Made by a program: the position numbers and the translations under genes. Shown here piece by piece: positions 4,263 to 31,410 of a DNA stretch of 32,000 nt. Source of the DNA: Longivirga aurantiaca. GTDB lineage: Bacteria; Actinomycetota; Actinomycetes; S36-B12; CAIYMF01. The notes under the pieces are model-generated. The model was not told where the DNA came from. It made no database searches and was given only the letters and a program-made list of their open reading frames with translations. The stretch is from positions 2,265,604-2,297,603 of the forward strand of contig NZ_JBHSTI010000008.1 of NCBI RefSeq assembly GCF_042660085.1, in the 5' to 3' direction. Each line of letters starts with the position of its first letter. The stretch's first letter is position 1.

Positions 4263-4335
4263 GCGCCCGTAGCTCAATGGATAGAGCAGCCGGTTTCTAC
4301 CCGGCTGGTTGGGGGTTCGAGTCCCTCCGGGCGCG
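4263..4335 (+). tRNA. tRNA-Arg (anticodon TCT)
   Basis: A manual cloverleaf fits. The acceptor stem pairs GCGCCCG with CGGGCGC. The D arm is GCTC-AATGGATA-GAGC. The anticodon arm is GCCGG-TTTCTAC-CCGGC, with TCT at positions 34-36. The T arm is GGGGG-TTCGAGT-CCCTC and the discriminator is G. CCA is not encoded. Confidence 0.9.
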
Positions 4336-10722: not shown

Positions 10723-11883
10723 ATGCAGGCGAGCGCTGCCACCGACCGCCCACGGGTGGTGATCGTCGACGTGCACGCGTCCGACTCGTTCCGCGAGTTC
10801 GCCGCAGCGCTGCGACGCCGTGGCGTCGACGTCATGCACGTCCGCCCCGCCTACCAGGGGCGGGGACGGTCGGTGAAGCGCGCGATCGACCGCCTCGCCG
10901 GGCCGATCGTCCCGCTGCACGGGCCGATCACCGGGGACGACCCGGCGACCGTCGCCCTGCGCCGGGAGATGCTGTCGGCGCCGACCGTGGACCTGCACGC
11001 GATCGAACCCGTCCTCGCAGACCTGGCGACGACTCCCGAGTGGCAGGCCAACCACGCTCTCCGCAGGCTGCGCCCCGGCGTCGAGCTCGGCGACGTCCTC
11101 GACAAGTGGGAGGTCGGACAGCTGGCCGTGGCCGCAGGCGTGCGGATCCCCGAGGCGAGCACCGACCTGACGACCGACCGGTTCCCCGTGGTCGTGAAGG
11201 GCCGCCTGGGCGCCGGCGGGATCTGGGTCCGGGTCGTGAACGACGCGGACGAGCTGCGGGCTGCCGTCGCCGACCTCGGAGGCGACGCGGCCGGCCTCTA
11301 CCTCGAGCGCTACCACCACACCGAGACCGGCCTCGGAACCGCCGGCGTGGCCCGCGACGGCGAGGTGCTGGTCTGCGGGGCGTTCGAGCGGCAGCCCAGC
11401 CCCGACGAGCCGCTCGCGCCCGCGGTCGCGATCAGGGCCTACCGCCACACTGCGGCGATCGAGGCGAGCGAGCGGCTCATTGGCGCTCTCGGCTACACGG
11501 GCATCTTCTGCCTCAACTTCGTCCCCGACGACGACGGCAGCCCGCTGCTGATCGACGTCAACCTGCGGGCGTTCGGGGCCTGGGTGACGCTCGACGAGCT
11601 GGGAGTCCCGATCCTCGACACCTACCTCGAGCTGATCGGTGCCGGCGCCGCTGCGCCCCCGATGAGGCTCGACGAGCAGCGCTGGGCACCCGTCGCGCGG
11701 ATCGGCACCGGGGCGAACGGAACGCTGGGCACGGTGTGGAGGGTGACCCGCGGCACCGGTGCGCTCGTGTGGCGCCGCCGACGCACGCTCGGATGGGGCT
11801 GGATGACCGGTACCGAGGTGCGCGTCGTGCAGACCGGGCTGACGGGCGCCGTCGGCGTCCTGCGAGGTCGGCGCCGTCGCTGA
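10723..11883 (+). CDS. ATP-grasp domain protein (386 aa), substrate unknown
   Basis: The ATG at 10723 is preceded by GAGGGAG with a 5-nt spacer. An ATP-grasp core is present (FPVVVKGRLGAGGIWVRVVNDADELRAAV ... GLYLERYH ... GYTGIFCLNFVPDDDGSPLLIDVNLRAFG). The ORF-track start at 9625 overlaps the AGE gene antisense and is rejected. Confidence 0.8.
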   Translation: MQASAATDRPRVVIVDVHASDSFREFAAALRRRGVDVMHVRPAYQGRGRSVKRAIDRLAGPIVPLHGPITGDDPATVALRREMLSAPTVDLHAIEPVLADLATTPEWQANHALRRLRPGVELGDVLDKWEVGQLAVAAGVRIPEASTDLTTDRFPVVVKGRLGAGGIWVRVVNDADELRAAVADLGGDAAGLYLERYHHTETGLGTAGVARDGEVLVCGAFERQPSPDEPLAPAVAIRAYRHTAAIEASERLIGALGYTGIFCLNFVPDDDGSPLLIDVNLRAFGAWVTLDELGVPILDTYLELIGAGAAAPPMRLDEQRWAPVARIGTGANGTLGTVWRVTRGTGALVWRRRRTLGWGWMTGTEVRVVQTGLTGAVGVLRGRRRR

Positions 11884-15045: not shown

Positions 15046-15289
15046 CGAGATCTCCTCGTCGACAGGTGAGAACGGTGCGGGCCGGGAGGGCATCCGCCTC
15101 GTGGTGACGCGCAGACCATATGTGCAGGAATCGTCGCCACGCGCTTCCGTGACCGGAACTTCTCCTGCGGTAACCCGGTCGAGGGAACGAGGGCACGCAT
15201 CGTGCGACGTCGGTCACTCCTCGTGTCTGGATGCACGCGGTGCGAGGGCGCCTCGCCTCCCATCGCCCGGCCCTCCCAGGTGGAGGGAT

Positions 15290-15301
15290 CCGCATATGCG
15301 G
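15290..15301. promoter_or_regulatory. candidate operator: perfect palindrome CCGCATATGCGG upstream of the form-II Mo-hydroxylase operon
   Basis: This 12-bp perfect palindrome lies in the 426-bp divergent intergenic region, 170 nt upstream of the small-subunit ATG. It has the same CCGCA-N2-TGCGG architecture as the sites at 22376-22387 and 25749-25760. Confidence 0.35.
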
Positions 15302-15471
15302 GGAGAACGTGGGTCGTCTGTCCGCGATTTCGTCCTACGCCTCAGCATCCGGTCAGAGGTGCGGCGAACCCGCCCTACGCCCCCGTTGACGGGGGTACTT
15401 TCCGCGGCACGGGGCGACGGCTGTCCGGGACGTCGCGCGCCCTCGCCACTCCAACCCCAGGGAGATCATCG

Positions 15472-15948
15472 ATGACCCACATCGGAGTCACCGTGGACGG
15501 GATCCTGCGGCACGGTGACGTGGAGCCTCGACGGCTCCTCGTGCACTGGCTGCGCGAGGACCTCGGCCTCGTCGGCACACCGGTCGGATGCGACACCTCG
15601 AACTGCGGTGCCTGCACCGTCCTGATCGACGGACGCAGCGCCAAGTCGTGCAGCGTGCTCGCCGTCCAGGTGGACGGCCAGAGCGTCACCACGATCCAGG
15701 GCCTCGCCGACGGCGACGAGTGGCACCCGGTGCAGAAGGCGTTCAAGGAGTGCCACGCCCTCCAGTGCGGCTTCTGCACCCCCGGCATGGTCCTGGCCTC
15801 GGTCGACCTGCTCTCGGAGAACCCGGACCCGAGCGAGGACGAGATCCGGGCCGGCCTCGAGGGCAACCTCTGCCGCTGCACCGGCTATCACAACATCGTG
15901 AAGGCGGTCGCGACCGCTGCGGCCGAGATGAAGGGGGCGTCGGCATGA
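15472..15948 (+). CDS. (2Fe-2S)-binding small subunit of a form-II CoxSLM-type molybdenum hydroxylase
   Basis: Cysteine motifs are [18 protein letters not shown] and CRCTGY. GGGAGA lies upstream of the ATG at 15472. The stop overlaps the next start as ATGA. Confidence 0.9.
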   Translation: MTHIGVTVDGILRHGDVEPRRLLVHWLREDLGLVGTPVGCDTSNCGACTVLIDGRSAKSCSVLAVQVDGQSVTTIQGLADGDEWHPVQKAFKECHALQCGFCTPGMVLASVDLLSENPDPSEDEIRAGLEGNLCRCTGYHNIVKAVATAAAEMKGASA

Positions 15949-18323
15949 CCGAGACCGTCGAGCGCACGGACGGCCCTGCGATCGGTCGTTCCGACCGGCG
16001 CAAGGAGGACGCCCGGCTCCTGACCGGCCGCACCAACTGGACCGACAACATCCAGCTGCCCGGCACGCTGCACATGGCCACGCTGCGCAGCTCGGTCGCG
16101 CACGCGAGGATCACCCGGATCGACACCAGCGCCGCCACGGCGGCAGAGGGCGTCTTCGCCGTCTACACGGGCGCGGACTTCCCCGACCTCCTCGGCACCA
16201 CCTGCGTGTGGCCGGTCACCGACGACATCAACACCGCGACGATGCCGGCGATCTGCTCGGACACGGTCAACTTCGCGGGCGACGTCGTCGCCGTCGTCCT
16301 CGCCACCGAGCAGTCGCTCGCGGTCGACGCGCTCGACCTCATCGACGTCGACTACGAGCCGCTGCCGGCAGTGGTCGACATGGAGAGCGCCCTCGCGTCC
16401 GGCTCCCCGAACGTCCACGAGGACTTCGGCACGAACCAGTGCTTCACCATGAACGTGCCCTGGGGCGACTACGCCGCGGCGAAGGCCAAGGCCGACGTCG
16501 TCGTCAGCCGCCGGTTCATCAACCAGCGCCTCATCCCGAACCCGATGGAGCCTCGCTCGGTCGTCGCTGCGCCGATGGGGATGAGCGACGAGATCACCAT
16601 CTGGTCCTCGACCCAGATCCCCCACGTGCTTCGGGTCCTGCTGGCGCTGCTGACGGGCATCCCGGAGAACAACATCCGCGTCGTCGCACCCGACGTCGGC
16701 GGCGGCTTCGGCGCCAAGCTGCAGATCAACCGCGAGGAGGTGCTGTCGATCGTCCTGGCCAAGAAGCTGGGTCGCCCGGTCAAGTGGACCGAAGGTCGCA
16801 GCGAGCACTTCGTGTCGACGCACCACGGCCGCGACCAGATCCAGGACATCGAGATCGCCGCGACCAGCGACGGCACCATCCTGGGGCTGAAGGTCGACCT
16901 CAAGGCCGACATGGGCGCCTACCTGCAGATCATCACGCCCGGCACGCCGCTCCTCGGCATGTTCATGTACTCGGGCATCTACAAGATGGACGCGCTCGAC
17001 TTCACCTGCACCGGCGTCTACACCAACAAGACGCCGACCGACGCCTACCGCGGCGCCGGACGCCCGGAGGCGACGTACGCCATCGAGCGCATCGTCGACG
17101 AGCTCGCGAACGAGCTCGGCATGGAGCCGCTCGAGCTGCGCAAGAAGAACTGGATCAAGCACGAGGAGTTCCCCTACACGCAGATCGCGGGCCTCACGTA
17201 CGACACGGGCAACTACGAGGCCGCGACCGCGCGCGCGGTGGAGCTCTTCGGGTACGACGAGCTCCGCGCCGAGCAGGCCGCACGCCGCGCGAGCGGCGAC
17301 AAGGTTCAGCTCGGCATCGGCATCTCGACGTTCACCGAGATGTGCGGCCTCGCGCCGTCCCGCACCCTGGGCGCGCTCAAGTACGCCGCAGGCGGATGGG
17401 AGCACTGCACGATCCGTGTGACGCCGACCGGCAAGGTGGAGCTCGTCACCGGCACGTCGCCGCACGGGCAGGGCCACGAGACTGCGTGGAGCCAGATCGC
17501 CAGCGACATCATCGGCATCCCTGTCGAGGACATCGAGGTCGTGCACGGCGACACCGGCAGGGCGCCGTACGGCATGGACACGTACGGCTCGCGCTCGCTG
17601 GCCGTCGGTGGCCAGGCCATCAAGGCGGCTGGCGAGAGGGTCGTGGAGAAGGCACGGGTCATGGCCGCGCACCAGCTCGAGGTGAGCCCGGACGACATCG
17701 AGTTCAGCAACGGCACGTTCTCGGTGAAGGGCGACCCTGAGAAGAGCACGACCATCCAGGCCGTCGCGTGGGCCGCGTTCGCGGCGCACAACATCCCCGA
17801 CGGCATGGAGCCGATGCTGTCCGGCGAGTCGACCGTCGACCCGCAGGACTTCTCCTACCCCCACGGCACGCACCTCGCGGCCATGGAGGTCGACACGGAG
17901 ACCGGCATGGTCACGCTGCGCAAGTACGTCGCCGTCGACGACTGCGGCGTGCAGATCAACCCGCTCATCGTCGAGGGCCAGGTGCACGGCGGACTCGCCC
18001 AGGGCATCGCCCAGGCGATGTACGAGGGTGCCCTCTACGACGCTGACGGCAACCTGCTGACCGGGTCGATGGGCGACTACCTCCTTCCGAGCGCGGCCGA
18101 CCTGCCGTCGTTCATCACCGATCGGACGATCACTCCGTCCACGACACATCCCTTGGGGACCAAGGGGATCGGCGAGGCCGGCGCGATCGCGTCGACCCCG
18201 GCGATCATCAACGGCGTGGTCGACGCGCTGCGCCCCCTCGGCGTCAACGACGTCTTCATGCCCGCCAGCCCGCAGAACGTGTGGCGCGCCATCCAGGCGG
18301 CGCAGAACGGAGGTGCCGCATGA
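15945..18323 (+). CDS. molybdopterin-binding large subunit, form-II CoxL-like (xanthine dehydrogenase family)
   Basis: 792 aa. The active-site loop reads AYRGAGR (nt 17043-17063), which is the published form-II signature rather than the CODH signature AYXCSFR. ATGA overlaps occur at both ends (15945-15948 and 18320-18323). Confidence 0.9.
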   Translation: MTETVERTDGPAIGRSDRRKEDARLLTGRTNWTDNIQLPGTLHMATLRSSVAHARITRIDTSAATAAEGVFAVYTGADFPDLLGTTCVWPVTDDINTATMPAICSDTVNFAGDVVAVVLATEQSLAVDALDLIDVDYEPLPAVVDMESALASGSPNVHEDFGTNQCFTMNVPWGDYAAAKAKADVVVSRRFINQRLIPNPMEPRSVVAAPMGMSDEITIWSSTQIPHVLRVLLALLTGIPENNIRVVAPDVGGGFGAKLQINREEVLSIVLAKKLGRPVKWTEGRSEHFVSTHHGRDQIQDIEIAATSDGTILGLKVDLKADMGAYLQIITPGTPLLGMFMYSGIYKMDALDFTCTGVYTNKTPTDAYRGAGRPEATYAIERIVDELANELGMEPLELRKKNWIKHEEFPYTQIAGLTYDTGNYEAATARAVELFGYDELRAEQAARRASGDKVQLGIGISTFTEMCGLAPSRTLGALKYAAGGWEHCTIRVTPTGKVELVTGTSPHGQGHETAWSQIASDIIGIPVEDIEVVHGDTGRAPYGMDTYGSRSLAVGGQAIKAAGERVVEKARVMAAHQLEVSPDDIEFSNGTFSVKGDPEKSTTIQAVAWAAFAAHNIPDGMEPMLSGESTVDPQDFSYPHGTHLAAMEVDTETGMVTLRKYVAVDDCGVQINPLIVEGQVHGGLAQGIAQAMYEGALYDADGNLLTGSMGDYLLPSAADLPSFITDRTITPSTTHPLGTKGIGEAGAIASTPAIINGVVDALRPLGVNDVFMPASPQNVWRAIQAAQNGGAA

Positions 18324-19174
18324 TCCCCTCGGCGTTCGACTACGTGAAGGCGTCCACGGTCGACGAGGCCGTCGCGGCTCTCGCCGAGGCAGGCGAGGAC
18401 GCGAAGGTGCTCGGCGGCGGCCAGTCGCTGCTGCCGGTGCTGCGCCTGCGTCTCAACGCACCGACCGTGCTCGTCGATGTCAGCGGCGTCGGCGAGATGC
18501 GGAGCATCTCGGACGAGGGCGGCTCGCTGCTCATCGGTGCGGCGGTCACGACGTACGAGGTCCTGCACGACGCGGCGGTCAACGCCTCGGTGCCCCTGCT
18601 GTCGCAGACCGCGGGGCTCGTGGCCGACCCGGCCATCCGTCACCGCGGGACCTTCGGCGGCTCGTGCACCCACGCCGACCCGGCAGGCGACCTGCCCACG
18701 GTGGCGCGGGCGCTCGACGCCGAGTTCGTGATCGCGGGGCCGGGCGGCCGTCGCACGGTGGCGGCGGCGGACTTCTTCGTCGACTACTTCACCACGGCCG
18801 TGGGACCGGACGAGGTCCTCGTGGCCGTCCGCGTGCCGAAGCTCGACGGGTGGGGCAGCCACTACGAGAAGTTCCACCGCACCGCGCAGGCGTGGGCCAT
18901 CGTCGGTGTCGCAGCGGCGGTGAAGGTCGAGGGCGGCAGCATCACCGGCGCCCGCGTCGCGCTCACCAACGTCGGACCGACGCCGGTGCGCGCTGCCTCG
19001 GTCGAGGCGGCCCTCATCGGAGGCCCTGCCACCGTCGAGGCGATCACTGCCGCCGCGCAGAGCGCGGCCGACGGCACGTCGCCCACCAGCGACACCCACG
19101 CCGCGGCCGACTTCCGCACCCACCTGGCGAAGGTCCTCACGGGCCGAGCCGTCGCCAAGGCCGCGGGCCTCTAG
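18320..19174 (+). CDS. FAD-binding medium subunit (CoxM-like) of the form-II enzyme
   Basis: The start MIPSAFDYVKASTVDEAVAAL is followed by the GGGQSLLPVLRLRL FAD-binding motif and RHRGTFGGS. GGAGG lies upstream of the ATG at 18320. Confidence 0.9.
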   Translation: MIPSAFDYVKASTVDEAVAALAEAGEDAKVLGGGQSLLPVLRLRLNAPTVLVDVSGVGEMRSISDEGGSLLIGAAVTTYEVLHDAAVNASVPLLSQTAGLVADPAIRHRGTFGGSCTHADPAGDLPTVARALDAEFVIAGPGGRRTVAAADFFVDYFTTAVGPDEVLVAVRVPKLDGWGSHYEKFHRTAQAWAIVGVAAAVKVEGGSITGARVALTNVGPTPVRAASVEAALIGGPATVEAITAAAQSAADGTSPTSDTHAAADFRTHLAKVLTGRAVAKAAGL

Positions 19175-19188
19175 CGCTCCACCAGCCC

Positions 19189-19230
19189 CAGCAGAACGGC
19201 CCCCGTCGCACGACGGGGGCCGTTCTGCTG
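19189..19230. terminator. bidirectional hairpin terminator between convergent genes
   Basis: CAGCAGAACGGCCCCCGTCG..CGACGGGGGCCGTTCTGCTG is a near-perfect 19-20 bp stem followed by TT. It sits between the medium-subunit stop (19174) and the modC stop (19246). Confidence 0.7.
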
Positions 19231-19245
19231 TTCCTCGAGGGTCGG

Positions 19246-20307
19246 TCAGGCGGGGTAGACGTCGAGCTCGGTGGCCTTGGCCGAGAGCCACAGCTCGGTG
19301 CCGCGCGTGAGCCGGAGGTCGGCCACCGCCCCCGGTGTGACGTCGACGATGACCGTCGGGGCGCCGCTGACGGTGACGCGGACGCGGTCGCCGATGGGCT
19401 CGACGCCGTCGACGACACCGCGCCACACGTTGCGCGCGCTGCCCTCCGGCTCGGCGGCGTGCAGGCTGATCGCGCTGGGTCGTACGGCGACCAGCACGTG
19501 GCCGTGGTGATCGGCGTCGTCCGCCACGTGCAGCGCGCCGCCGCCGTCCAGGGCGACCTCCCCGCCCGCGGCCGTGCCGGGCAGCAGGTTGATGCCGAGC
19601 AGCCGTGCGACGTAGCGCGTCGCCGGGCGCCTGGCCACCTCCCACGGCTCCCCCTGCTGCGTGACCGAGCCGCCCTCCAGCACCACGATCCGGTCCGCCA
19701 GGACGAGGGCGTCGAGCGGGTCGTGCGTGACCAGCAGCGTGGGACCCCCGACGTCGGTCAGGTGCTCGCGCAACCAGGAGCGGACGTCGAGCCGCGTGCC
19801 GGCGTCGAGCGCCGCGAGCGGTTCGTCGAGCAGCATCGCCACCGGGTCGGCCGCGAGCGCACGACCGAGCGCCACCCGCTGTGCCTGCCCGCCCGACAGC
19901 GTCGCCGGCTTGCGGTGCGCGAGGTCGTCGAGCCCGAGCCTCGTCACCCACACCCCCGCGCGCCGCCGGGATTCGGCCTTGGACACGCCGGACGAGCGCA
20001 GCCCGAAGGCGAGGTTGTCGAGCACCGAGAGGTGAGGGAAGAGCCGATAATCCTGGAACACCAGGCCGATCCGGCGCTCCCCCGGTGCGACGAGCACGTC
20101 GGCCGCGGGATGGTCCACGACCACGGTGCCGAGCGACAGCCGCCCGCCGGTCATCGGCGTGAGCCCGGCGACCGCGCGCAGCAGGGTCGACTTCCCGGCA
20201 CCGTTCGGGCCGAGCACCGCCACCACCTCGCCGGCAGCCACCTCGATCTCGACGTCGAGGCGGAAGGCCCCCTGCTCGACGACGACCTGGCCCGACAGCC
20301 CGCTCAT
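19246..20307 (-). CDS. modC: molybdate ABC transporter ATP-binding protein
   Basis: Walker A is GPNGAGKST, the signature is LSGGQAQRVALGRAL and Walker B is LLDEPLAALD. A C-terminal TOBE/Mop-like domain is present. The ATG at 20307 overlaps the modB stop as ATGA. It lies in an operon with modA and modB. Confidence 0.9.
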   Translation of the reverse strand: MSGLSGQVVVEQGAFRLDVEIEVAAGEVVAVLGPNGAGKSTLLRAVAGLTPMTGGRLSLGTVVVDHPAADVLVAPGERRIGLVFQDYRLFPHLSVLDNLAFGLRSSGVSKAESRRRAGVWVTRLGLDDLAHRKPATLSGGQAQRVALGRALAADPVAMLLDEPLAALDAGTRLDVRSWLREHLTDVGGPTLLVTHDPLDALVLADRIVVLEGGSVTQQGEPWEVARRPATRYVARLLGINLLPGTAAGGEVALDGGGALHVADDADHHGHVLVAVRPSAISLHAAEPEGSARNVWRGVVDGVEPIGDRVRVTVSGAPTVIVDVTPGAVADLRLTRGTELWLSAKATELDVYPA

Positions 20308-21116
20308 GCCGATGCCCCGGTCCCCAGCCACCGGTCGCGGAGCCCCACGAGCACGAGCACCGAGACCGCGAGCAGCACGAGGCTCAGCACGACCGCCTCG
20401 GAAGGGTCGCCCTCGAGACCGGTGTAGACGGCGAGCGGCAGCGTCTGCGTCACGCCCTCGAGGTTGCCGGCGAAGGTGATGGTCGCTCCGAACTCGCCCA
20501 GTGCGCGGGCGAAGGTCAGCACCGCACCCGCGACGAGCGACGGCGCCACGAGCGGCACGGTGACCCGGCGGAACACCTCGACGCGGCTCGCGCCCAGGGT
20601 GACCGCAGCCTCCTCGAGCTTCCCGTCCAGGCCGCGCAGCGCCCCCTCGACCGTGATGACGAGGAACGGCATGGCCACGAACACCTGCGCAACGACCACC
20701 CCCGGCGTGGTGAACGGCAGCGTGATCCCGGTGAGTGCTTCGAGCGGCTGACCGACGATGCCCCGGCGCCCGAACGCCAGGAGCAGTGCGATGCCGCCCA
20801 CGACGGGCGGGAGCACGAGCGGCACCGTGACGAGCGCGCGCAGGAAGCGGCGGCCCGGGACTGTCGAGCGCGCGAGCAGCCAGGCCAGCGGTACGCCGAG
20901 CAGCACGGCCACGACGGTCGAGGCCAGCCCGGTCACGAGCGAGAGCCGCAGCGCCGCCAGCGACGTCGGCGAGGTGAGCACCTCCCAGAACCGGCTCCAG
21001 GGCGCGCGGACGAGCAGCCCGAGCAGGGGCAGCGCGAGGAACAGGATGGCGAGCCCGGCGGGCACGAGGACGGGCCAGGGGGGTGCGGTCGCCGACCGCC
21101 CGCGGCGGGCGGTCAC
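20304..21116 (-). CDS. modB: molybdate ABC transporter permease
   Basis: 270 aa and polytopic. An EAA-like loop is present (EEAAVTLGASRVEVFRRVTVPL). The GTG at 21116 overlaps the modA stop as GTGA. The ORF-track version (510 aa) reads through the modA region in another frame and is rejected. Confidence 0.9.
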   Translation of the reverse strand: MTARRGRSATAPPWPVLVPAGLAILFLALPLLGLLVRAPWSRFWEVLTSPTSLAALRLSLVTGLASTVVAVLLGVPLAWLLARSTVPGRRFLRALVTVPLVLPPVVGGIALLLAFGRRGIVGQPLEALTGITLPFTTPGVVVAQVFVAMPFLVITVEGALRGLDGKLEEAAVTLGASRVEVFRRVTVPLVAPSLVAGAVLTFARALGEFGATITFAGNLEGVTQTLPLAVYTGLEGDPSEAVVLSLVLLAVSVLVLVGLRDRWLGTGASA

Positions 21117-21889
21117 GGGGCGCCGAACCCGGCGTCGGCGAGCACCTTCTGCGCCTCGGGGCCCAGCAGGTATGCCGCGAACGCCTGTGCTGTCACGGGA
21201 TTCGCGCTGCCCGACATCGCGGCGATCGGGTAGCTCGTCGTCACGTTCTGGTCGACGGGGATGTCGATGCCGACGACGGCGCTGCCCGCGGCCTTCACGT
21301 CGGTCACGTAGACGATGCCTGCGTCGACCTCGCCGAGCTGCACCTTGGAGAGCACCGACTTCACGTCGACCTCGCGCGTCACGGGCGTCACCGTGAGGTT
21401 GTTCTGCTCGAAGAGCTTGTCGGCCGCGATGCCGCACGGCACGTCGGCCGCGCACACGGCGACCTTCACCGCGGGGTCGGCGAGGTCCGCCAGCGAGGTG
21501 ACTGTCGTGATCGGGTCGGCCGGGGCAGCGATGGCCATCGTGTTGACGGCGAACACCGTCGAGCCGGGCGCGAGCCCGGCGTCGACCACGGTGTCCATCG
21601 TCTTCTGGCTCGCGCTGGCGAACACGTCGGCAGGCGCCTTCTCGGCGATCTGGGTCGCGAGTCCGCTGCTCGGCCCGAAGCTGAACGTGATCGTCGTTCC
21701 CGGGTTCGCCGCCTCGAACTGCTCGCCGATCGTCACGAACGCCTCCTTCAGCGAGGCTGCGGCGAACACGGTGATCGGTCCTGTCACGCCGGTCGCCGAG
21801 CCGGACGGCGCTTCTCCAGCAGCGGTCGAGCCGCATCCGGCCACAGCGAGCGTCGCGGCTGCGAGGGCTACGAGCAGGCGCGTGCGCAC
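21113..21889 (-). CDS. modA: molybdate ABC transporter substrate-binding lipoprotein
   Basis: A lipobox is present (LAVAGC). The motif ITVFAAASLKEAF...FSFGPSSGLATQI...ADVFASAS is typical of ModA. GTG start at 21889 with GAAGGG upstream. Confidence 0.9.
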   Translation of the reverse strand: MRTRLLVALAAATLAVAGCGSTAAGEAPSGSATGVTGPITVFAAASLKEAFVTIGEQFEAANPGTTITFSFGPSSGLATQIAEKAPADVFASASQKTMDTVVDAGLAPGSTVFAVNTMAIAAPADPITTVTSLADLADPAVKVAVCAADVPCGIAADKLFEQNNLTVTPVTREVDVKSVLSKVQLGEVDAGIVYVTDVKAAGSAVVGIDIPVDQNVTTSYPIAAMSGSANPVTAQAFAAYLLGPEAQKVLADAGFGAP

Positions 21890-21920
21890 GGTGCGCCCTT
21901 CGTCGTCCGCGGGGTGCGCA

Positions 21921-22328
21921 TCAGCGGTGGTCGGGGATCTCGATGCCGACGTTGGTGGACTTCACGGTGGCGACCGCGAGGACTCCGGGCTCGAGACCGA
22001 GCTCGTCGGCGGCCTCGCGGCTCATGAGCGACACCATCCGGTGCGGGCCCACCTGCAGCTCGACCTGCGCCATCACCGTGTCGCGCACGACGCGGGTGAC
22101 GATGCCCGTCAGCCGGTTGCGGGCCGAGGCGCTCACCACCGGGCTCTCGAGCGCGGGATCGTCGACCGCCCGCTCGGCCATGAACCGCGCCACCTCGGTG
22201 CCGTCCACCACGGCACGTCCGACGTCGTCGGTCGCCGTGGCGAGGCGCCCCGAGTCGGCCCAGCGCCGCACCGTGTCGTCGCTGACGTGCAGGAGGCTCG
22301 CCACTTCGCTGATCCGCAGCTTCGTCAT
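21921..22328 (-). CDS. molybdate-responsive regulator candidate: N-terminal excisionase/MerR-type HTH plus C-terminal Mop/TOBE domain
   Basis: Start is the ATG at 22328. The HTH is MTKLRISEVASLLHVSDDTVRRWADSGRL. The C-terminal segment SARNRLTGIVTRVVRDTVMAQVELQVGPHRMVSLMSREAADELGLEPGVLAVATVKSTNVGIE matches the molbindin/TOBE pattern. It ends 31 nt upstream of modA. Confidence 0.8.
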   Translation of the reverse strand: MTKLRISEVASLLHVSDDTVRRWADSGRLATATDDVGRAVVDGTEVARFMAERAVDDPALESPVVSASARNRLTGIVTRVVRDTVMAQVELQVGPHRMVSLMSREAADELGLEPGVLAVATVKSTNVGIEIPDHR

Positions 22329-22374
22329 GCGGGCGAGGGTACGGCTCAGATGCGGATCACGCATCCATTTCTGG

Positions 22375-22388
22375 TCCGCACGTGCGGA
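22375..22388. promoter_or_regulatory. candidate operator: perfect 14-bp palindrome TCCGCACGTGCGGA upstream of the mop-regulator-modABC operon
   Basis: It lies 46 nt upstream of the regulator ATG (22328) in an 85-bp intergenic gap. A further GATCCGCA half-site (minus strand, 22351-22358) lies inside the imperfect palindrome GATGCG-gatca-CGCATC. Confidence 0.4.
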
Positions 22389-22413
22389 TTGTGACCCGTC
22401 ATGCTTCCGCAGG

Positions 22414-22956
22414 TCACGCAGGCCGCTCGTCGAGGTCCTCGCCCGACGCGACGTCGCCCACCTCCACGAGGGCGACGTCGTGCGCCGCGAGGTAGGCCCG
22501 TGCACCGCGGTCGCCGTCGGCCGCGTCGCGCACGCCCGGCCAGTGCCCCCGCCCGAGCAGCACCGGGTGCCCCCGCTCGCCGGCGTACGCCGCCTGGGCG
22601 AGATCGGAGCCGCTGTCGACGAGCCGTCGCACGGCCTCGGGGCTGAGCCCCGGGAGGTCGACGAGGGTGACCACGACCCGATCGGCCTCGGTGCCCACCA
22701 GCGTGTCCAGGCCGAGCCGCAGCGACGAGCCCATGCCGCTCGCCCAGTCGGCGTTCACGACCGTGATGTCGGCGTCGTCCACGCGGCCCACCCAGGCACC
22801 GAGCACGACGACGACGGGCTCGCACTCGGCGTCGCGCAGCAGATGCACCGCACGGTCGACCAGCCGCTCGCCGTCCAGCACGTACGGCGCCTTCGGACCG
22901 CCGAAGCGCCGTCCCTCACCGGCAGCGAGCACGAGCCCCGCGGTGCTCCCGCTCAA
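22414..22956 (-). CDS. mocA: MobA-like nucleotidyltransferase, probable molybdenum cofactor cytidylyltransferase (MocA-type)
   Basis: The N-terminal motif is GLVLAAGEGRRFGGPK, followed by VVVTLVDLPGLSPEAV. The apparent TTG start at 22956 overlaps the xdhC stop as TTGA. The role is inferred from context with xdhC and MCD-dependent enzymes. Confidence 0.75.
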   Translation of the reverse strand: MSGSTAGLVLAAGEGRRFGGPKAPYVLDGERLVDRAVHLLRDAECEPVVVVLGAWVGRVDDADITVVNADWASGMGSSLRLGLDTLVGTEADRVVVTLVDLPGLSPEAVRRLVDSGSDLAQAAYAGERGHPVLLGRGHWPGVRDAADGDRGARAYLAAHDVALVEVGDVASGEDLDERPA

Positions 22957-24059
22957 CGCGGAGCGCCGGCGTGGATCGGCCCGTCGGACTGCGCCAGATT
23001 CTTGCCTGAGCCGCCCCAGCGGTGCTGCACGATCTCGGCGGCGATCGAGATCGCTGTCTCCTCAGGGGTTCTCGCGCCGAGGTCCAGGCCGATCGGCGAC
23101 TGGATCCGGGCGATCTCAGCGTCGGTGAGCCCGGCCTCCTTCAACCGGATCGTGCGGTCCTCGTGGGTGCGGCGCGACCCCATCGCCCCGATGTAGGCGG
23201 CGCGGGTGGCGACGGCCTCCTTCAGCGCCGGCACGTCGAACTTCGGGTCGTGCGTCAGCACGCAGATCACCGCGCGGGAGTCGACCTGCTGCGAGGCCAG
23301 CCAGCGGTGCGGCCAGTCCACGACGACCTCGTCGGCGTCCGGGAACCGCTTCCTGGTCGCGAACACCTCGCGCGCGTCGACGATCGTGACGTGGAAGCCC
23401 AGCAGCTTGCCCGCCCTGCTCAGTGCCGCGGAGAAGTCGACCGCGCCGAAGATCGCCATCCGCGGCGCCGGCGCGAACGACGCCACGAACACCTCCAGGC
23501 CCTCGCCGAGCCGCTCGCCCTCGGGGCCGTACCTCAGGAACCCCGTCGAGCCGGACTCGAGCATCCCGAGCACGTCGGATCCCACGGTGTCGTCCAGGCG
23601 CGAGGTGCCGAGCGATCCTTCGATCCCGTTCTCCCGCACCACGATGTGGCGCCCCACGTGATCGGGACCCTTCACCACCGTGGCGACCGCGACGTGCTCG
23701 CCCGCGTCGATCGACGCCGCGATACCGGGCAGCTCCGGCCAGGTCTGCTCGTCGACCTTCTCGACGAACACCTCCAGGATCCCGCCGCAGGTGAGCCCGA
23801 CCGTGAACGCGTCACCGTCGCTGATGCCATACGTCTCGTAGCGCGCGACGCCGTCCTCGAGCACCTCGGTGCCCAGGGTGTAGAGCGCGCCCTCGACGCA
23901 GCCGCCGCTCACCGAGCCGACCGCCTCGCCTGCGGCGGTCACGAGCATCGACGCACCGGCAGGACGCGGCGCCGAACGCCACGTGCGGACCACGGTGGCC
24001 ATCGCCACCGGCTCGCCGCGATCGACGGCGGCCATCAGTGCGGGCAGGACCTCGCGCAC
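22953..24059 (-). CDS. xdhC: XdhC/CoxI-family molybdenum cofactor insertion chaperone
   Basis: The N-terminal domain reads RGEPVAMATVVRTWRSAPRPAGASMLVTAAGEAVGSVSGGCVEGAL. The XdhC_C Rossmann-like part reads MAIFGAVDFSAAL...VLTHDPKFD...YIGAMGSRRT. The GTG at 24059 is preceded by GAGGAG with a 5-nt spacer. The 81 upstream codons of the ORF-track version are rejected. Confidence 0.85.
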   Translation of the reverse strand: MREVLPALMAAVDRGEPVAMATVVRTWRSAPRPAGASMLVTAAGEAVGSVSGGCVEGALYTLGTEVLEDGVARYETYGISDGDAFTVGLTCGGILEVFVEKVDEQTWPELPGIAASIDAGEHVAVATVVKGPDHVGRHIVVRENGIEGSLGTSRLDDTVGSDVLGMLESGSTGFLRYGPEGERLGEGLEVFVASFAPAPRMAIFGAVDFSAALSRAGKLLGFHVTIVDAREVFATRKRFPDADEVVVDWPHRWLASQQVDSRAVICVLTHDPKFDVPALKEAVATRAAYIGAMGSRRTHEDRTIRLKEAGLTDAEIARIQSPIGLDLGARTPEETAISIAAEIVQHRWGGSGKNLAQSDGPIHAGAPR

Positions 24060-24138
24060 GGCATCTCCTCGGGGTGTCCCACTGGGGTGAGGGCACGACG
24101 GACCCGGCCGGACGCAGCGCGCGTGCCCGTCGTCGTCC

Positions 24139-24573
24139 ATGATGACCCGCATGGCAAGAGTCCTGCTCGCCGACGTCGTGACCGAGCCCATCCACGTGCG
24201 CGACGTGGCCGCCCTCGTGGCCGGGCCCGAGGCCGGCGCCGTCGTCACCTTCTCCGGCGACGTCCGCGACCACGACCACGGCAGGTCGGTCGCGACGCTC
24301 ACCTACGAGGGCCACCCGACCGCCGCCTCGGTGCTCGCCGAGTGCGCCGCCGAGATCGCCGCCAGGCACCCCGTGGTCGCCGTCGCGGCCCTGCACCGCG
24401 TCGGGCCCATCGCCATCGGTGAGGCGGCGCTGGTCGCCGCGGTCAGCAGCGCCCATCGCGCCGAGGCGTTCGCCGCCTGCGCCGAGCTCGTCGACGTCAT
24501 CAAGGAGCGCCTGCCCGTGTGGAAGCACCAGGTCTTCACCGACGGCACCGACGAATGGGTCAACTGCGCCTGA
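24139..24573 (+). CDS. moaE: molybdopterin synthase catalytic subunit
   Basis: 144 aa with typical MoaE motifs: GAVVTFSGDVRDHD, LTYEGHP, HRVGPIAIGEAALVAAVSSAHRAEAF and KERLPVWKHQVF. It is divergent from xdhC. Confidence 0.9.
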   Translation: MMTRMARVLLADVVTEPIHVRDVAALVAGPEAGAVVTFSGDVRDHDHGRSVATLTYEGHPTAASVLAECAAEIAARHPVVAVAALHRVGPIAIGEAALVAAVSSAHRAEAFAACAELVDVIKERLPVWKHQVFTDGTDEWVNCA

Positions 24574-24775
24574 TCCCCCCGACCCGGTCGGGAGGCGGCG
24601 GCCCGCCATCCCCCGCCATGAAGGCCGGCGTCGTTGAGCTCTGAGCAACGAAGCCCCCCATCGTCAACCTGGCGAGGTGACGGTGGGGCTGGTTTCGTCA
24701 GGTTCCGAACGACACTCCCCGGAGTGATGCATCCAGGGCGCCGCACGCCTACCGTCGAGGTGGGAGGTGAGGGCG

Positions 24776-25732
24776 ATGGCGCTCGGACCGTTGGGGTCGC
24801 TCGCTGCCTCGGCGCGCGCCACGCTCGCGCGGCACGACGCGCCGCACCCGACCCCGACCCACCCCCGGACCGTCTTCGTGCTGTCCGGCGGAGCCGCGCT
24901 CGGTGCGGCCCAGGCGGGCATGGCCCGCGTGCTGCTCGACGCCGGCGTGGTGCCGGACGCCATCGTCGGCGTCTCCGCGGGCGCCATCAACGGCGCGCAC
25001 ATCGCGTTCCACCCGCACTCGGACGGCGGGGAGCGCCTGGAAGACCTCTGGCGGGCCCTCTCCACGACCGGTGTCATCGGCGGCCGCCGCAGCTGGGCCT
25101 GGAACGTCGTGCGCGGACGGTCCGGCGCGTTCCCGGCCGAGGGGCTGCGCGCCGCCCTCGAGGAGGCTGTCGGCGACCGCACCGACATCGGGGGCTCCGA
25201 CATCGAGCTCTACATCGGCACCACGCACCTCGCGACGGGCCACCCGGTGTTCCACCGCCGGGGGCCGCTCGTCGACGTCCTGCTCGCGTCGTCCGCGCTG
25301 CCCGGGCTGTTCCCCGCCGTGCACCTCGACGACCCGGACGGCGAGCATGCCGGCCTGCACGTGGACGGCGCGGTCACGGCGATGCTGCCGCTGCAGTACG
25401 CGCTCGAGCTCGATCCGGGGCACGTGTGGGTGCTCGATGTGTCCGGCGCCGTCCGCGCCACCGCGGCATACCACCCGGGCAGTCTCGACCTCGTGTCGAC
25501 CGGCTTCGCCCTCGCCCTCGGCCGGCAGGTGGGCCTCGGCGACTCCGGCCACGACCCGCGCGTGAGCACGATCAGCCTCCGGATGCGCCCCGCGGAGAAG
25601 CTCCGCAGCGTCCTGGACTTCGACCACACCGAGGCCCTCATCGAGGCCGGGCGGCACGAGGCCGAGGAGTCGCTCGCGCACGCGTTCGCCCGGCGTCCCG
25701 ACCTCATCCCGGGCCGACCCGAGTCCGCCTGA
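24776..25732 (+). CDS. patatin-like phospholipase
   Basis: Motifs: Gly-rich oxyanion loop VLSGGAALGAAQAG, nucleophile G-x-S-x-G as GVSAG, and catalytic Asp in VDGAV. The ATG at 24776 has GGGAGG 8 nt upstream and is preferred over the GTG at 24767. Confidence 0.85.
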   Translation: MALGPLGSLAASARATLARHDAPHPTPTHPRTVFVLSGGAALGAAQAGMARVLLDAGVVPDAIVGVSAGAINGAHIAFHPHSDGGERLEDLWRALSTTGVIGGRRSWAWNVVRGRSGAFPAEGLRAALEEAVGDRTDIGGSDIELYIGTTHLATGHPVFHRRGPLVDVLLASSALPGLFPAVHLDDPDGEHAGLHVDGAVTAMLPLQYALELDPGHVWVLDVSGAVRATAAYHPGSLDLVSTGFALALGRQVGLGDSGHDPRVSTISLRMRPAEKLRSVLDFDHTEALIEAGRHEAEESLAHAFARRPDLIPGRPESA

Positions 25733-25748
25733 CGTTCCGCCCGCAGAT

Positions 25749-25760
25749 CCGCACCTGCGG
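25749..25760. promoter_or_regulatory. candidate operator CCGCACCTGCGG upstream of coxG-coxMSL (alternatively part of a terminator hairpin after the patatin gene)
   Basis: The arms CCGCA/TGCGG and the left flank GAT are the same as at 15287-15301. It lies 160 nt upstream of the coxG GTG and 17 nt after the patatin stop. The overlapping sequence CCCGCAG-atccgcac-CTGCGGG can also fold as a 7-bp hairpin. Confidence 0.3.
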
Positions 25761-25920
25761 GTCCTCGTGGGAGATGCAGCCGCTTCTGCCCCAGTCAGGT
25801 CTGGGCAACCTCAGGACCTGCACCGTCAGGGTGCGGGGATGCCGACCCCGTCCTACCCTCAGCCCACCGCGTGACCGCCGTCACAGACCCGTGCTCGTCA
25901 GCGCCTTCCCAGGAGTGTTC

Positions 25921-26586
25921 GTGGAGCTTCAGAACTCGTTCGTCGTACCCGCCGATATGGACACCGCCTGGAAGACGCTGCAGGACGTCGAGTTCCTCGC
26001 CCCCTGCGTCCCCGGCGCGACGCTCACCAAGAGCGACGGCGAGAACTTCGAGGGCAACGTCAAGGTCAAGCTCGGCCCGGTCTCGATGACGTACGGCGGC
26101 ACCGCGCGGTTCGTCAGCCGCGACGAGGCGACCCACACCGCCGTGATCGAGGGCACGGGCAAGGAGACCAAGGGCACCGGCACCGCCAAGGGGCTCGTCA
26201 CCGCCGTGCTCGTCGCCGAGGCGCCGGACCGCACCCGCTGCGACGTCGTCAGCGAGCTGACCATCACCGGCAAGGCCGCGCAGTTCGGCCGCGGCGTCAT
26301 GCAGGACGTCGCCGGCCGCATCATCGACCAGTTCTCGGCCAACCTCGCCGCGCAGATGACCGCTGCCGGCGCCGGTGCCGTCGCGGCGGCTGCCGCTGCG
26401 GACGGCGGCGGCACCGAGGCGGCCGCTGCTGCCCCGCGCGCAACCACTCCTCCCCCGCGTCCTGCCTCGGAGGAGGCCATCGACCTGCTCGGCACTGCGG
26501 GCGCGCCGGTGCTCAAGCGGGCCATCCCCATCGTGATCGGCGCCGTTGTGGTCATCGGCCTGATCATCTGGCTCGTCAAGAAGTAG
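25921..26586 (+). CDS. coxG: CoxG-family SRPBCC protein with Ala/Pro-rich linker and C-terminal TM anchor
   Basis: The GTG at 25921 is preceded by AGGAG with a 5-nt spacer. The CoxG-like core reads VPADMDTAWKTLQDVEFLAPCVPGA...VKVKLGPVSMTYGG...ITGKAAQFGRGVMQDVAGRIIDQF. The protein ends in AIPIVIGAVVVIGLIIWLVKK. Confidence 0.85.
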   Translation: MELQNSFVVPADMDTAWKTLQDVEFLAPCVPGATLTKSDGENFEGNVKVKLGPVSMTYGGTARFVSRDEATHTAVIEGTGKETKGTGTAKGLVTAVLVAEAPDRTRCDVVSELTITGKAAQFGRGVMQDVAGRIIDQFSANLAAQMTAAGAGAVAAAAAADGGGTEAAAAAPRATTPPPRPASEEAIDLLGTAGAPVLKRAIPIVIGAVVVIGLIIWLVKK

Positions 26587-26708
26587 CGTGCGCCGAAGGC
26601 CGGCCTCCCCTTGCCCGAGGCTGCCCTCCCGTACGTGACGAACGGCTCGGCCAACGTCAGGAATCGCAGCACGAACCCATCCGGCACGACCCCCAGTGAG
26701 GTGGCGGA

Positions 26709-27578
26709 ATGCAGACCCCAGCCCCCGTCGACTACGCGAAGGCCACCTCGGTGGCCCATGCGATCGAGCTGCTCGAGCAGTTCGGTGAGGACGCCCGGCC
26801 GGTAGCAGGCGGACACAGCCTGCTGCCGATGATGAAGCTGCGGCTCGCAGCGCCGGAGGCACTCGTCGACCTCAACGACATCCCGGAGCTCACGGGCATC
26901 CGGATCGAGGGTGACGAGATCGTGGTGGGGGCCATGACCCGGCACCGCGACATCCTCGCCTCGGCGATCCTCGCCGAGCACTACCCGATCTTCCGCGAGG
27001 CCGAGCACCTCATCGCCGACCCGGTCGTGCGCAACCGCGGCACCATCGGCGGCTCCGCGTGCCAGGCCGACCCGGCCGCGGACCTGTCGGCCGTCGGCTC
27101 GGCGCTGCGCGGCACCGCCGTCGTGCAGGGCTCCGGCGGCCGGCGCACCGTGCCGCTGCGCGAGTTCCACGAGGGCCCGTACGACACCGTCATCCAGCCT
27201 GGCGAGGTGCTCGTCGAGCTCCGCTACCCGATCCGTCCGGGCGCGGGCAGCGCGTACGAGAAGGTCGAGCGCCGCGCAGGCGACTGGGGCGTCGCCACCG
27301 CGGGCGTGTTCGTCGTCGTACGCGACGGCGTCGTGACCGACTGCGGCATCGGCAACGCGGCCGTGGGCGCCGAGCACTACTGCTCGCCCGCCGCCGAGGC
27401 TGCGCTCATCGGTCAGCCGGCCACGGAGGAGAGCTTCGCCGCCGCCGCCAAGGTCGTCGGCGAGACCTGCGAGCCGTACGCCGACCAGCGGGGACCGGTC
27501 GACTACAAGCGCCACCTCGCCACCGAGCTGACCCTCCGCGCGCTGCGCCGCGCCGCCCGAGCCTCCCAGGGAGCATGA
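26709..27578 (+). CDS. coxM: form-I carbon monoxide dehydrogenase medium (FAD) subunit
   Basis: Motifs are [14 protein letters not shown] and [16 protein letters not shown] lies upstream of the ATG at 26709. It is first in the M-S-L order, and its stop overlaps the coxS start as ATGA. Confidence 0.9.
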
Positions 27579-28062
27579 CCATGCAGGTGACGATCACCGT
27601 CAACGGCGTCGAGCAGACGCGTGACATCGAGCCGCGCATGCTGCTCGTGCACTTCATCCGCGACGAGCTGCAGATGCGCGGCACCCACTGGGGCTGCGAC
27701 ACCTCCAACTGCGGCGCCTGCACCCTGTGGATCGACGACGAGCCCGTCAAGAGCTGCACGCAGCTCGCGGTGATGGCCGACGGCAAGTCGATCACCACGG
27801 TCGAGGGCCTCGCCAAGGGCGGCGAGCTCGACCCGATCCAGAAGGGCTTCATGGAGTGCCACGGCCTCCAGTGCGGCTACTGCACCCCCGGGATGATGAT
27901 GGTCGGGCGCGCGCTGCTCGACGAGAACCCGCACCCGACCGAGGCCGAGATCCGCGAGGGCATCAGCGGCAACATCTGCCGCTGCACCGGCTACAAGAAC
28001 ATCGTCGCGGCGATCCAGTGGGCCGCCGAGAACCCCGCCACGACCGACGCCGAGGTGACCGC

Positions 28063-28066
<4 letters not shown>
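27575..28066 (+). CDS. coxS: form-I carbon monoxide dehydrogenase small (2x[2Fe-2S]) subunit
   Basis: Cysteine motifs are [18 protein letters not shown] and CRCTGY. ATGA overlaps occur with coxM (27575-27578) and coxL (28063-28066). Confidence 0.9.
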
Positions 28067-30462
<2,396 letters not shown>

Positions 30463-30471
30463 GAGCACCAC

Positions 30472-31410
30472 GTGATGACCACGCGGGCACTGGACGAGAG
30501 GGCCGAGTCCCTGCGCGCCCACAGGGTGCCGTTCGTCCATGCCCGCGTGGTCCTCGCCGAACGACCCACCTCGGCGAAGCCCGGCGACGAGGCGGTGATC
30601 ACCCCTGACGGCGTCATCGAGGGTTTCGTCGGCGGTCAGTGCGCCGAAGGGACGGTGCGCACGCAGGCCCTGTCGCTGCTGTCGTCGGGCGACTCCATGC
30701 TGCTGCGCATCACGCCCAACCCCGAGGGCGAGCAGTCGGGCAAGACCGTGGTGCACAACGCCTGCCTGTCGGGAGGCACGCTCGAGATCTTCCTCGAGCC
30801 CGTCCTGCCGCTGCCGCTCGTCGCCGTGCTCGGCGACAGCCCGATCGCCCGTGCGATGACCGGGGTCGCCGAGGCGCTCGGCTACGAGGTCTCGACGTAC
30901 GACGACGCCGACCTCTCGGCCACCGACGCCGTGGTCGTCGCCACCCACGGCAAGCGCGAGGAGAAGACGCTGCAGGACGCCGTGCTCGCGGGCGTTCCGT
31001 ACGTCGGGCTCGTCGCGAGCCCCAAGCGCGGCGCCGCGGTCGTCGAGTCGCTCGAGCTCACCGACGAGCAGCGCGCACGCATCCACTACCCCGCCGGGCT
31101 CGACATCGGCGCGCGCACACCCCAGGAGATCGCGCTCTCGGTCTTCGCCCAGATGGTCTCCGAGCGTCCGCGCGTGCCGCGCACCGCACATGCCGGCACC
31201 CACCCGCCGGTCACGGAGCCGCCCGTGACGCGGCTCGGCGTGATCTCGCTGGAGACCGAGACCGCGATCGACCCGGTCTGCGACATGACGGTGACGATCT
31301 CGCCGGACGCCCTGCACGCCGATCTCCCGGACGGCGAGCGCGTGTGGTTCTGCTGCCCCGGGTGCCGTCGCGAGTTCCTGAAGCACCCCGAGAAGTACCC
31401 TCGATCGTGA
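30472..31410 (+). CDS. XdhC/CoxI-family protein fused to a C-terminal YHS (TRASH-like) metal-binding domain
   Basis: The GTG at 30472 lies 6 nt after TAGGAG. The XdhC_CoxI N-domain reads PFVHARVVLAERPTSAKPGDEAVITPDGVIEGFVGGQCAEG. The XdhC_C part reads LVAVLGDSPIARAM...VVATHGKREE...YVGLVASPKRG. A Pro/Thr linker follows. The YHS pattern is DPVCDMTV...VWFCCPGCRREFLKHPEKY (about nt 31270-31401). Confidence 0.85.
   Translation: MMTTRALDERAESLRAHRVPFVHARVVLAERPTSAKPGDEAVITPDGVIEGFVGGQCAEGTVRTQALSLLSSGDSMLLRITPNPEGEQSGKTVVHNACLSGGTLEIFLEPVLPLPLVAVLGDSPIARAMTGVAEALGYEVSTYDDADLSATDAVVVATHGKREEKTLQDAVLAGVPYVGLVASPKRGAAVVESLELTDEQRARIHYPAGLDIGARTPQEIALSVFAQMVSERPRVPRTAHAGTHPPVTEPPVTRLGVISLETETAIDPVCDMTVTISPDALHADLPDGERVWFCCPGCRREFLKHPEKYPRS

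Follow-up and report, generated by a model that had tools for sequence, protein, structure and literature searches.

In Escherichia coli, ModE senses molybdate through Mop/TOBE domains, represses modABC at its promoter, and activates moa and molybdenum (Mo) enzyme operons from upstream (PMC11672702, PMC11980592); ModE is the sole molybdate-sensing transcription factor named in a 2024 review (PMC11672702). The TaoR family, as summarized from Rajeev et al. (2019, Environ Microbiol 21:784) in PMC11980592, joins an HTH_17 DNA-binding domain to a PBP-like (TupA-like) oxyanion sensor and regulates tungsten (W)/Mo enzymes and transport. We analyzed a 32-kb stretch of the Longivirga aurantiaca genome, hereafter the window (C8:2265604-2297603 of a 3.67-Mb assembly, 72% GC), whose nearest matches among public records are metagenome-assembled actinomycetes under the label Candidatus Nanopelagicales. 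Three regions of the window share the palindrome CCGCA-N2-TGCGG. This palindrome is probably the operator of a 135-amino-acid regulator encoded at 21921-22328 on the minus strand, and would tie together molybdate uptake, cofactor synthesis and two Mo enzymes. A literature search, made without RegPrecise-type databases, found no published description of this regulator type or its motif.

The regulator consists of a BldC/MerR-like winged helix-turn-helix (HTH) and a single Mop/TOBE domain (residues 66-133) with a SARN motif. Pfam assigned HTH_17 (PF12728, 36 bits, above the cut-off) and TOBE, with MerR and MerR_1 matches under or near their cut-offs, and NCBIfam assigned Mop/BldC/excise. Its AlphaFold model (predicted local distance difference test score, pLDDT, of 85; both domains confident) shows an HTH that ends with a helix at residues 43-56, a disordered linker at 57-64 and a beta-rich Mop domain. 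The N-domain superposes on BldC (6amk/6ama) with a root-mean-square deviation of 1.5-1.6 Å over 50 residues at 31-34% identity, and also on RacA (5i44). The C-domain superposes on MopII with a deviation of 1.8-2.3 Å, and also on ModG, Tub and the di-Mop domain of ModE. The Mop residues S68-A-R70-N71, S100/S103 and K123-S-T125 are invariant in 34 homologues, as are S16, D18, R21, R22 and W23 in the recognition-helix region.

The window protein shares a Mop/TOBE domain with SARN with E. coli ModE, and with MopA/MopB of Rhodobacter and ModE of Methanosarcina, but its DNA-binding domain is different. ModE carries a ModE/LysR-type winged helix, whereas the window protein has a BldC/MerR-like HTH_17, and the Pfam and NCBIfam searches found no HTH_1 or ModE_N in it. 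It has one TOBE match in 135 residues, compared to two Mop domains in 262 residues for ModE, and its gene heads the mod operon and is predicted to be leaderless. The E. coli ModE box is long and AT-rich. In contrast, the conserved promoter element here is palindromic, 12 bp long and GC-rich, and recurs in arrays with a 31-bp period, which agrees with the proposal of a preliminary description of this DNA that the operator is distinct from that of ModE.

Other proteins with similar domains also differ from the window regulator. It shares the MerR-type winged-HTH fold with classical MerR, but the coiled-coil dimerisation helix of MerR is not in its model. It shares HTH_17 with TaoR, as far as that family is outlined in the citing account, but its sensor is a TOBE domain and it has no solute-binding-protein domain. 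BldC of Streptomyces, like RacA a MerR-like winged HTH that lacks the coiled coil, is the closest solved N-domain fold; it assembles head-to-tail on direct repeats and carries no sensor, unlike the window regulator with its Mop domain and predicted inverted-repeat sites. The molbindins MopII, ModG and Tub have the same C-domain fold and binding motif at 36-40% identity, but they are storage proteins without a DNA-binding domain. RacA of Bacillus subtilis has a similar N-domain fold and is architectural, not metal-responsive; symmetric RacA dimers bind a GC-rich site, and the Arg equivalent to BldC Arg30 makes YpG contacts (PMC5859096). The window protein has the invariant R22-W23 at the matching place, and the half-site TGCGG contains TpG and CpG steps. 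Because RacA binds a GC-rich site as a dimer, a compact GC-rich palindrome is plausible for this fold.

Exact matches to CCGCA-N2-TGCGG (CCGCANNTGCGG) number three in the window, all of them intergenic, compared to a chance expectation of 0.15; none of 100 shuffled windows held three copies, and the Poisson probability of three copies inside 10.5 kb is 2.6e-5, a post-hoc figure. The first copy (CCGCATATGCGG, 15290-15301) lies 170 nt 5′ of coxS (start 15472) of an S-L-M operon, and the second (CCGCACGTGCGG, 22376-22387) lies 47 nt 5′ of the regulator's ATG (22328), inside a perfect 14-bp palindrome (TCCGCACGTGCGGA, 22375-22388). The third (CCGCACCTGCGG, 25749-25760) is 160 nt 5′ of the coxG GTG (25921) and 16 nt 3′ of a patatin stop codon. 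These are the sites of the preliminary description, found exactly where it had placed them, with the single change that it had given 46 nt for the second distance. The octamer GATCCGCA occurs at 15287 and 25746, and also at 11141 and 12037 within coding sequence and at 22351 as an extra half-site, as had been reported; a sixth copy starts at 22311.

The regulator's own promoter holds two such sites next to a predicted -10 element. We placed the -10 of a leaderless regulator-modABC promoter at TACCCT (22336-22341, minus strand), 7 nt before the ATG, where regulator orthologues have a TAnnnT box in the same place. Classical MerR operators lie within an overlong spacer of 19-20 bp, and activation there works through distortion of the DNA; at the regulator promoter a proximal site occupies the spacer next to the -10, and no clear -35 could be placed. 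For scoring sites in this genome, we used a position weight matrix trained solely on sites from other genera. The distal operator at 22376-22387, an exact match, scores 17.1, is centred ~40 bp 5′ of the -10, and is conserved in orthologous loci L001-4, 7 and 16. The proximal, imperfect operator (minus strand CCGCATCTGAGC, 22344-22355, score 9.2) ends 2 nt before the -10 and is 32 bp from the distal one; it corresponds to the extra half-site mentioned above, and its position is kept in orthologues. A possible third site (22314-22325, score 12.7) lies 30 bp from the proximal one in the first codons of the regulator gene and overlaps the octamer at 22311-22318; it is uncertain, as coding constraint could explain its sequence. 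As a separate observation, lower-GC members of the genus (loci L011, L013, L014 and L019) have an extra 20-bp AT-rich palindrome (CACACCATATATATAGGTGTA-like) between two operator copies.

The same arrangement recurs across actinomycetes. We collected 80 regulator loci from Frankia, Kineosporia, Jatrophihabitans, Nocardioides, Marmoricola, Cellulomonas, Phycicoccus and many uncultured actinomycetes, and counted every 5-N(0-8)-5 inverted repeat within 120 nt upstream of the regulator gene. In this unbiased count CCGCA-N2-TGCGG is the commonest repeat, present in 26 of the 80 loci versus 0 of 288 control windows. When degenerate copies are included (score of at least 8), 69 of the 80 loci have a site and 41 have two or more. 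Neighbouring sites are spaced by 31 bp (26 cases), 32 bp (7), 33 bp (2) or 62-63 bp (9), and in 53 of the 69 loci 12-16 nt separate the end of the proximal site from the start codon, which puts the site directly against the TAnnnT -10 of a predicted leaderless promoter. Site density is 6.25/kb in the 170 nt upstream of the regulator, compared to 0.06/kb elsewhere in the same loci, a difference of about 100-fold. Phylogenetic footprinting, as had been suggested for this locus, identifies the motif as the dominant conserved element of the regulator promoter.

The regulator is also closely tied to molybdate uptake. The genes modA and modB follow it in 67-69 of the 80 loci, and orthologues are present in all 24 sampled genomes of the genus. 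Regulator and modA co-occur across genomes; because genomes without the regulator mostly also lack modA, they are uninformative as a motif control. More than 8000 homologues were scored, and the databases name them only generically ('TOBE domain-containing', 'molybdopterin-binding protein'). In most actinomycetes, a protein of this different and much smaller type appears to serve in place of ModE.

Genome-wide, the distinguishing property of the palindrome is its location and not its frequency. The genome has 19 copies of the 12-mer versus ~20 expected from base composition, and therefore the word itself is not over-represented. Copies in coding sequence (13/19) are at chance level, but 6 of the 19 are intergenic although non-coding DNA makes up only ~12% of the genome (p = 0.018), and four of these six precede Mo genes. 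Run over the 3.67-Mb genome, the matrix ranks the window's sites at 15290, 22376 and 25749 first (19.3), third (17.1) and fourth (16.6), and 8 of the 13 hits scoring at least 15 are intergenic (p = 2.7e-5). Both counts bear out the intergenic enrichment that the preliminary description had proposed to look for. We also searched the genome for paired sites 20-44 bp apart; the top three pairs are at the mod promoter, at the form II cox promoter and at C8:1548411-1548453, and all have a spacing of 31-32 bp. A genome from another family (G029) contains 21 exact copies, where the only clear promoter sites are the regulator's own two; one further copy abuts a molybdopterin oxidoreductase gene and is ambiguous.

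The third pair identifies a target outside the window. At C8:1548411-1548453, 0.7 Mb from the window, an operator-like pair (CCTCATCCGCGG, a 19-nt gap and CCGCAGGTGCGG) lies 65 nt 5′ of a leaderless moaA, recognized by its Radical_SAM and Mob_synth_C domains. The two sites are centred 58.5 and 89.5 bp 5′ of the -10, which is nearer by one helical turn than at the cox promoters, and the pair is kept in the four nearest relatives (loci L175-179). We count moaA as a fourth, independent Mo target predicted for the palindrome.

At both cox promoters, the main operator occupies a fixed position relative to a predicted -10. Upstream of the form II-like coxS-L-M operon, the site at 15290-15301 (19.3) is centred 100.5 bp before a predicted -10 (TACTTT, 15396-15401, plus strand) that lies in a conserved GGGGTACnTTCCGC block, and a weak partner (CCGCGATTTCGT, 15322-15333, score 6.5) is found 32 bp 3′ of it. 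The orthologous loci L062-64 have partner sites as well (CCGCGTCCGCGG, CCGCAGCCGCGG and CCGCGCCCGCGG). The distance is 100.5 bp in three of four close relatives (including L062 and L064), and in the fourth (L063) the site is in the 68.5-bp slot. Among the form II coxS orthologues of the genus, 6 of 25 score at least 11 and 9 of 25 reach 9.8. The predicted -10 is followed by a conserved 5′ untranslated region of ~75 nt; within this region (15408-15471) is a conserved GC-rich hairpin-like block (GGCGACGGCnGTCCGGGAnGTCGCC) that has no Rfam match.

Upstream of coxG-coxMSL, the main operator at 25749-25760 (16.6) is centred 99.5 bp before a predicted -10 (TACCCT, 25854-25859, plus strand; TAnnnT is conserved across the genus). 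Its degenerate partner (CCGCTTCTGCCC, 25780-25791, score 2.8) lies 31 bp 3′, and loci L032, L034 and L043 have a similar sequence at the same offset. A score of at least 11 is reached by 10 of the 23 coxG orthologues of the genus, versus 1.3% of all gene upstreams in the genome. In 8 of these 10 the site is centred 99.5-100.5 bp before the -10, and in one more it sits 68.5 bp before it, in the partner slot. In alignments the palindrome is one of the few conserved islands amid the diverged spacers of the cox promoters. The form II cox and coxG promoter regions are non-homologous, yet they share the same site-to--10 geometry. We rejected promoter duplication as the source of this shared geometry, because the regions upstream of form II cox, coxG and moaA cannot be aligned.

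Two further observations concern the region around coxG. In most members of the genus, moaE-moaA is directly 5′ of coxG (loci L036-L050 and L180-L200; the corresponding part of the window is 24139-25921); in the subclade of this genome moaA has been relocated and a patatin gene is in its place, with operator pairs at both places. Secondly, a CRP-like palindrome, GTGA-N6-TCAC, is found at 25871-25884, 12 nt 3′ of the predicted coxG -10, and is conserved throughout the genus as well as in several further genera of the order. Its 51 copies in the genome, 27 of them intergenic, suggest a global cyclic AMP (cAMP)/CRP-type regulon that includes form I CO dehydrogenase.

We propose the following mechanism. 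At the regulator's own promoter, one operator sits in the spacer against the -10 and a second is 31-32 bp, or three helical turns, upstream; occupancy of these sites would block RNA polymerase and repress the regulator together with modABC. At moaA and at the cox operons, the site pairs are further upstream (~58/89 bp for moaA and ~68/100 bp for both cox operons), and there the bound protein most likely stimulates transcription. Mop domains form oxyanion sites between subunits. Because of this, and because each chain has one Mop domain, assembly across operators is an attractive possibility; molybdate-driven assembly of dimers on operators three helical turns apart would explain the 31-bp rule. 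When molybdate (or possibly tungstate) is plentiful, the protein would bind DNA, uptake would be switched off, and cofactor synthesis and the two Mo enzymes would go up. Such a logic would follow that of E. coli ModE (PMC11672702, PMC11980592).

The preliminary description had named the HTH-Mop protein as the binder, autoregulating and coupling uptake to both Mo enzymes. Comparative genomics favours these couplings to Mo genes, and every computational test that had been put forward came out in favour, as judged from the sequences. The cox part of the proposal is lineage-specific, and the protein is the candidate binder by virtue of its position. Footprinting at the cox operons showed fixed positions kept in part of the genus, with no coxG site found at 12 loci of other genera.

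Several observations weigh against the proposed regulon. Cox sites are missing or degenerate at 13 of the 23 coxG and at 16-19 of the 25 form II orthologues in the genus; at 12 coxG-coxMSL loci from other genera of the order no site was found, with a best score of 6.2. The cox partner sites are weak (scores of 2.8-6.5). The matrix scan found no good site at moeA-moaC, narG and three further molybdopterin oxidoreductases. Two exact intergenic copies adjoin genes without a link to Mo: C51:29770 is 340 nt 5′ of a sugar-type binding-protein gene, and C54:131-142 (locus L173; CCGCAGGTGCGG), the second-best matrix hit with a score of 17.2, is at the edge of a 1.6-kb contig and immediately precedes the gene for a 505-amino-acid protein with no Pfam match. 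We treat both copies as chance or unexplained. The binomial p-values overstate the case, because close relatives are not independent. The matrix used to detect sites in the wide set had some of those data in its training set; that overlap does not affect the statistics on spacing and position. Finally, the same genome encodes a 52%-identical HTH-Mop paralogue (C8:395212-395622) that could share or own the sites.

One rival reading is that the palindrome is the regulator's operator at the mod promoter only, as plain autoregulation of uptake, and that the cox copies are young, weakly selected or neutral and have little effect. The absence of a coxG site at 12 loci of other genera and in over half of the genus, the weak partner sites and the chance frequency of the word genome-wide all fit such a restricted role. 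However, the cox sites rank first and fourth among all matrix hits in the 3.67-Mb genome, and in 8 of 10 coxG orthologues and 3 of 4 close form II orthologues their distance to the -10 is held within 99.5-100.5 bp although the flanking sequences have diverged. The same geometry appears at two promoters that are not homologous, and the coxG site persists whether a patatin gene or moaA is the upstream gene. We therefore consider it unlikely that the operator functions at the mod promoter alone. Because no site was found at the 12 loci outside the genus, we regard the cox operons as a lineage-specific addition to the regulon; on the sequence evidence, cox regulation is not general to the regulator family, and the cox link extends to only about half of the genus.

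Alternatively, another protein could bind the motif, either the paralogue or an unrelated regulator, in which case the site in front of the regulator gene would be a sign of cross-regulation. The paralogue is present in about half of the genus, and the binder is identified by position only. The motif, however, goes with the promoter of this group of orthologues through many families, and wherever it does not vary the recognition helix does not vary either, so that an invariant helix matches an invariant operator. The HTH-Mop regulator is the sole DNA-binding protein found among the window genes, and the paralogue itself has a glpX-like neighbour, no adjoining Mo genes and no CCGCA-N2-TGCGG upstream. 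Based on these comparisons, a different binder is a distinctly improbable explanation.

Least credible of all is that the elements act as RNA hairpins, such as terminators or attenuators, instead of protein-binding DNA: the copy at 25749 follows the patatin stop by 16 nt and can fold into a hairpin of 7 bp around a 4-nt loop, but fold z-scores at the three sites are unremarkable (-1.4, -1.0 and -0.1, the first value also being that of 25749), none of the three was called as a terminator-like site, the arm sequence is conserved beyond mere pairing, and the 31-bp periodic array fits protein binding. Actinobacterial terminators can be without U tracts. The mod and moaA sites would in addition be untranscribed from those promoters, because they are upstream of leaderless starts. 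The possibility, raised in the preliminary description, that the 25749 site is purely the patatin terminator is unlikely, as it has no U tract, a fold z-score of -1.4, and persists where moaA is the upstream gene.

An operator recognized by the HTH-Mop regulator would have wider uses. Its defined sequence, its 31-bp spacing in arrays and its constant place at a leaderless promoter would allow regulons to be predicted across thousands of genomes. If the cox link is true, form I CO dehydrogenase is tied to Mo supply, which would be a nutrient control on atmospheric CO oxidation by soil actinobacteria, and the lineage-specific nature of that link illustrates a metal regulon gaining new members. 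More speculatively, single-Mop winged-HTH proteins may be a widespread second class of molybdate sensor, in which molybdate at Mop-Mop interfaces makes dimers oligomerise and bridge operators three turns apart in a switch-like manner, with uptake repressed and Mo-dependent genes activated; in this soil lineage form I CO dehydrogenase would have been recruited, and CO oxidation gated by Mo supply together with a CRP-type starvation signal. We offer this extended picture tentatively, and rather doubt that all of its parts will hold.

The gene map of the window combines a codon-usage likelihood caller, which assigns 88% of the genome as coding, with Pfam, and it upheld the earlier annotation of the region. 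The form II-like Mo hydroxylase operon coxS-L-M (15472-19174, plus strand) encodes a small (15472-15948), a large (15945-18323) and a medium subunit (18320-19174); with 734 bits on TIGR02416, the large subunit falls short of the cut-off of 991 and is not form I. The molybdate ABC importer is in an operon behind the regulator gene (19246-21889, minus strand), with modA at 21113-21889, modB at 20304-21116, and modC, which has a TOBE tail, at 19246-20331. Next come a mocA-like gene and xdhC (22414-24302, minus strand), moaE (24139-24573, plus strand) and patatin (24767-25732, plus strand).

The form I CO dehydrogenase cluster (25921-31410, plus strand) contains coxG (25921-26586), coxM (26709-27578), coxS (27575-28066), coxL (28063-30462) and an XdhC/CoxI-YHS gene (30472-31410), with a coxD-like AAA gene 3′ of the last. 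Its coxL scores 1343 bits on TIGR02416, over the cut-off, and the order M-S-L agrees with form I. The genome has only two xanthine-dehydrogenase-family enzymes; both are in the window and both have the palindrome upstream. An Rfam scan of the whole window returned a tRNA at 4263-4335 and nothing else, which ruled out a riboswitch as an explanation of the site regions. Elsewhere in the genome, a weak site (8.3) at C18:16550 is 29 nt 5′ of a moeA paralogue, and a site scoring 13.9 at C8:2192089-2192122 is located between a SulP-type anion transporter gene and a divergently oriented sulfatase-maturase/sulfatase pair.

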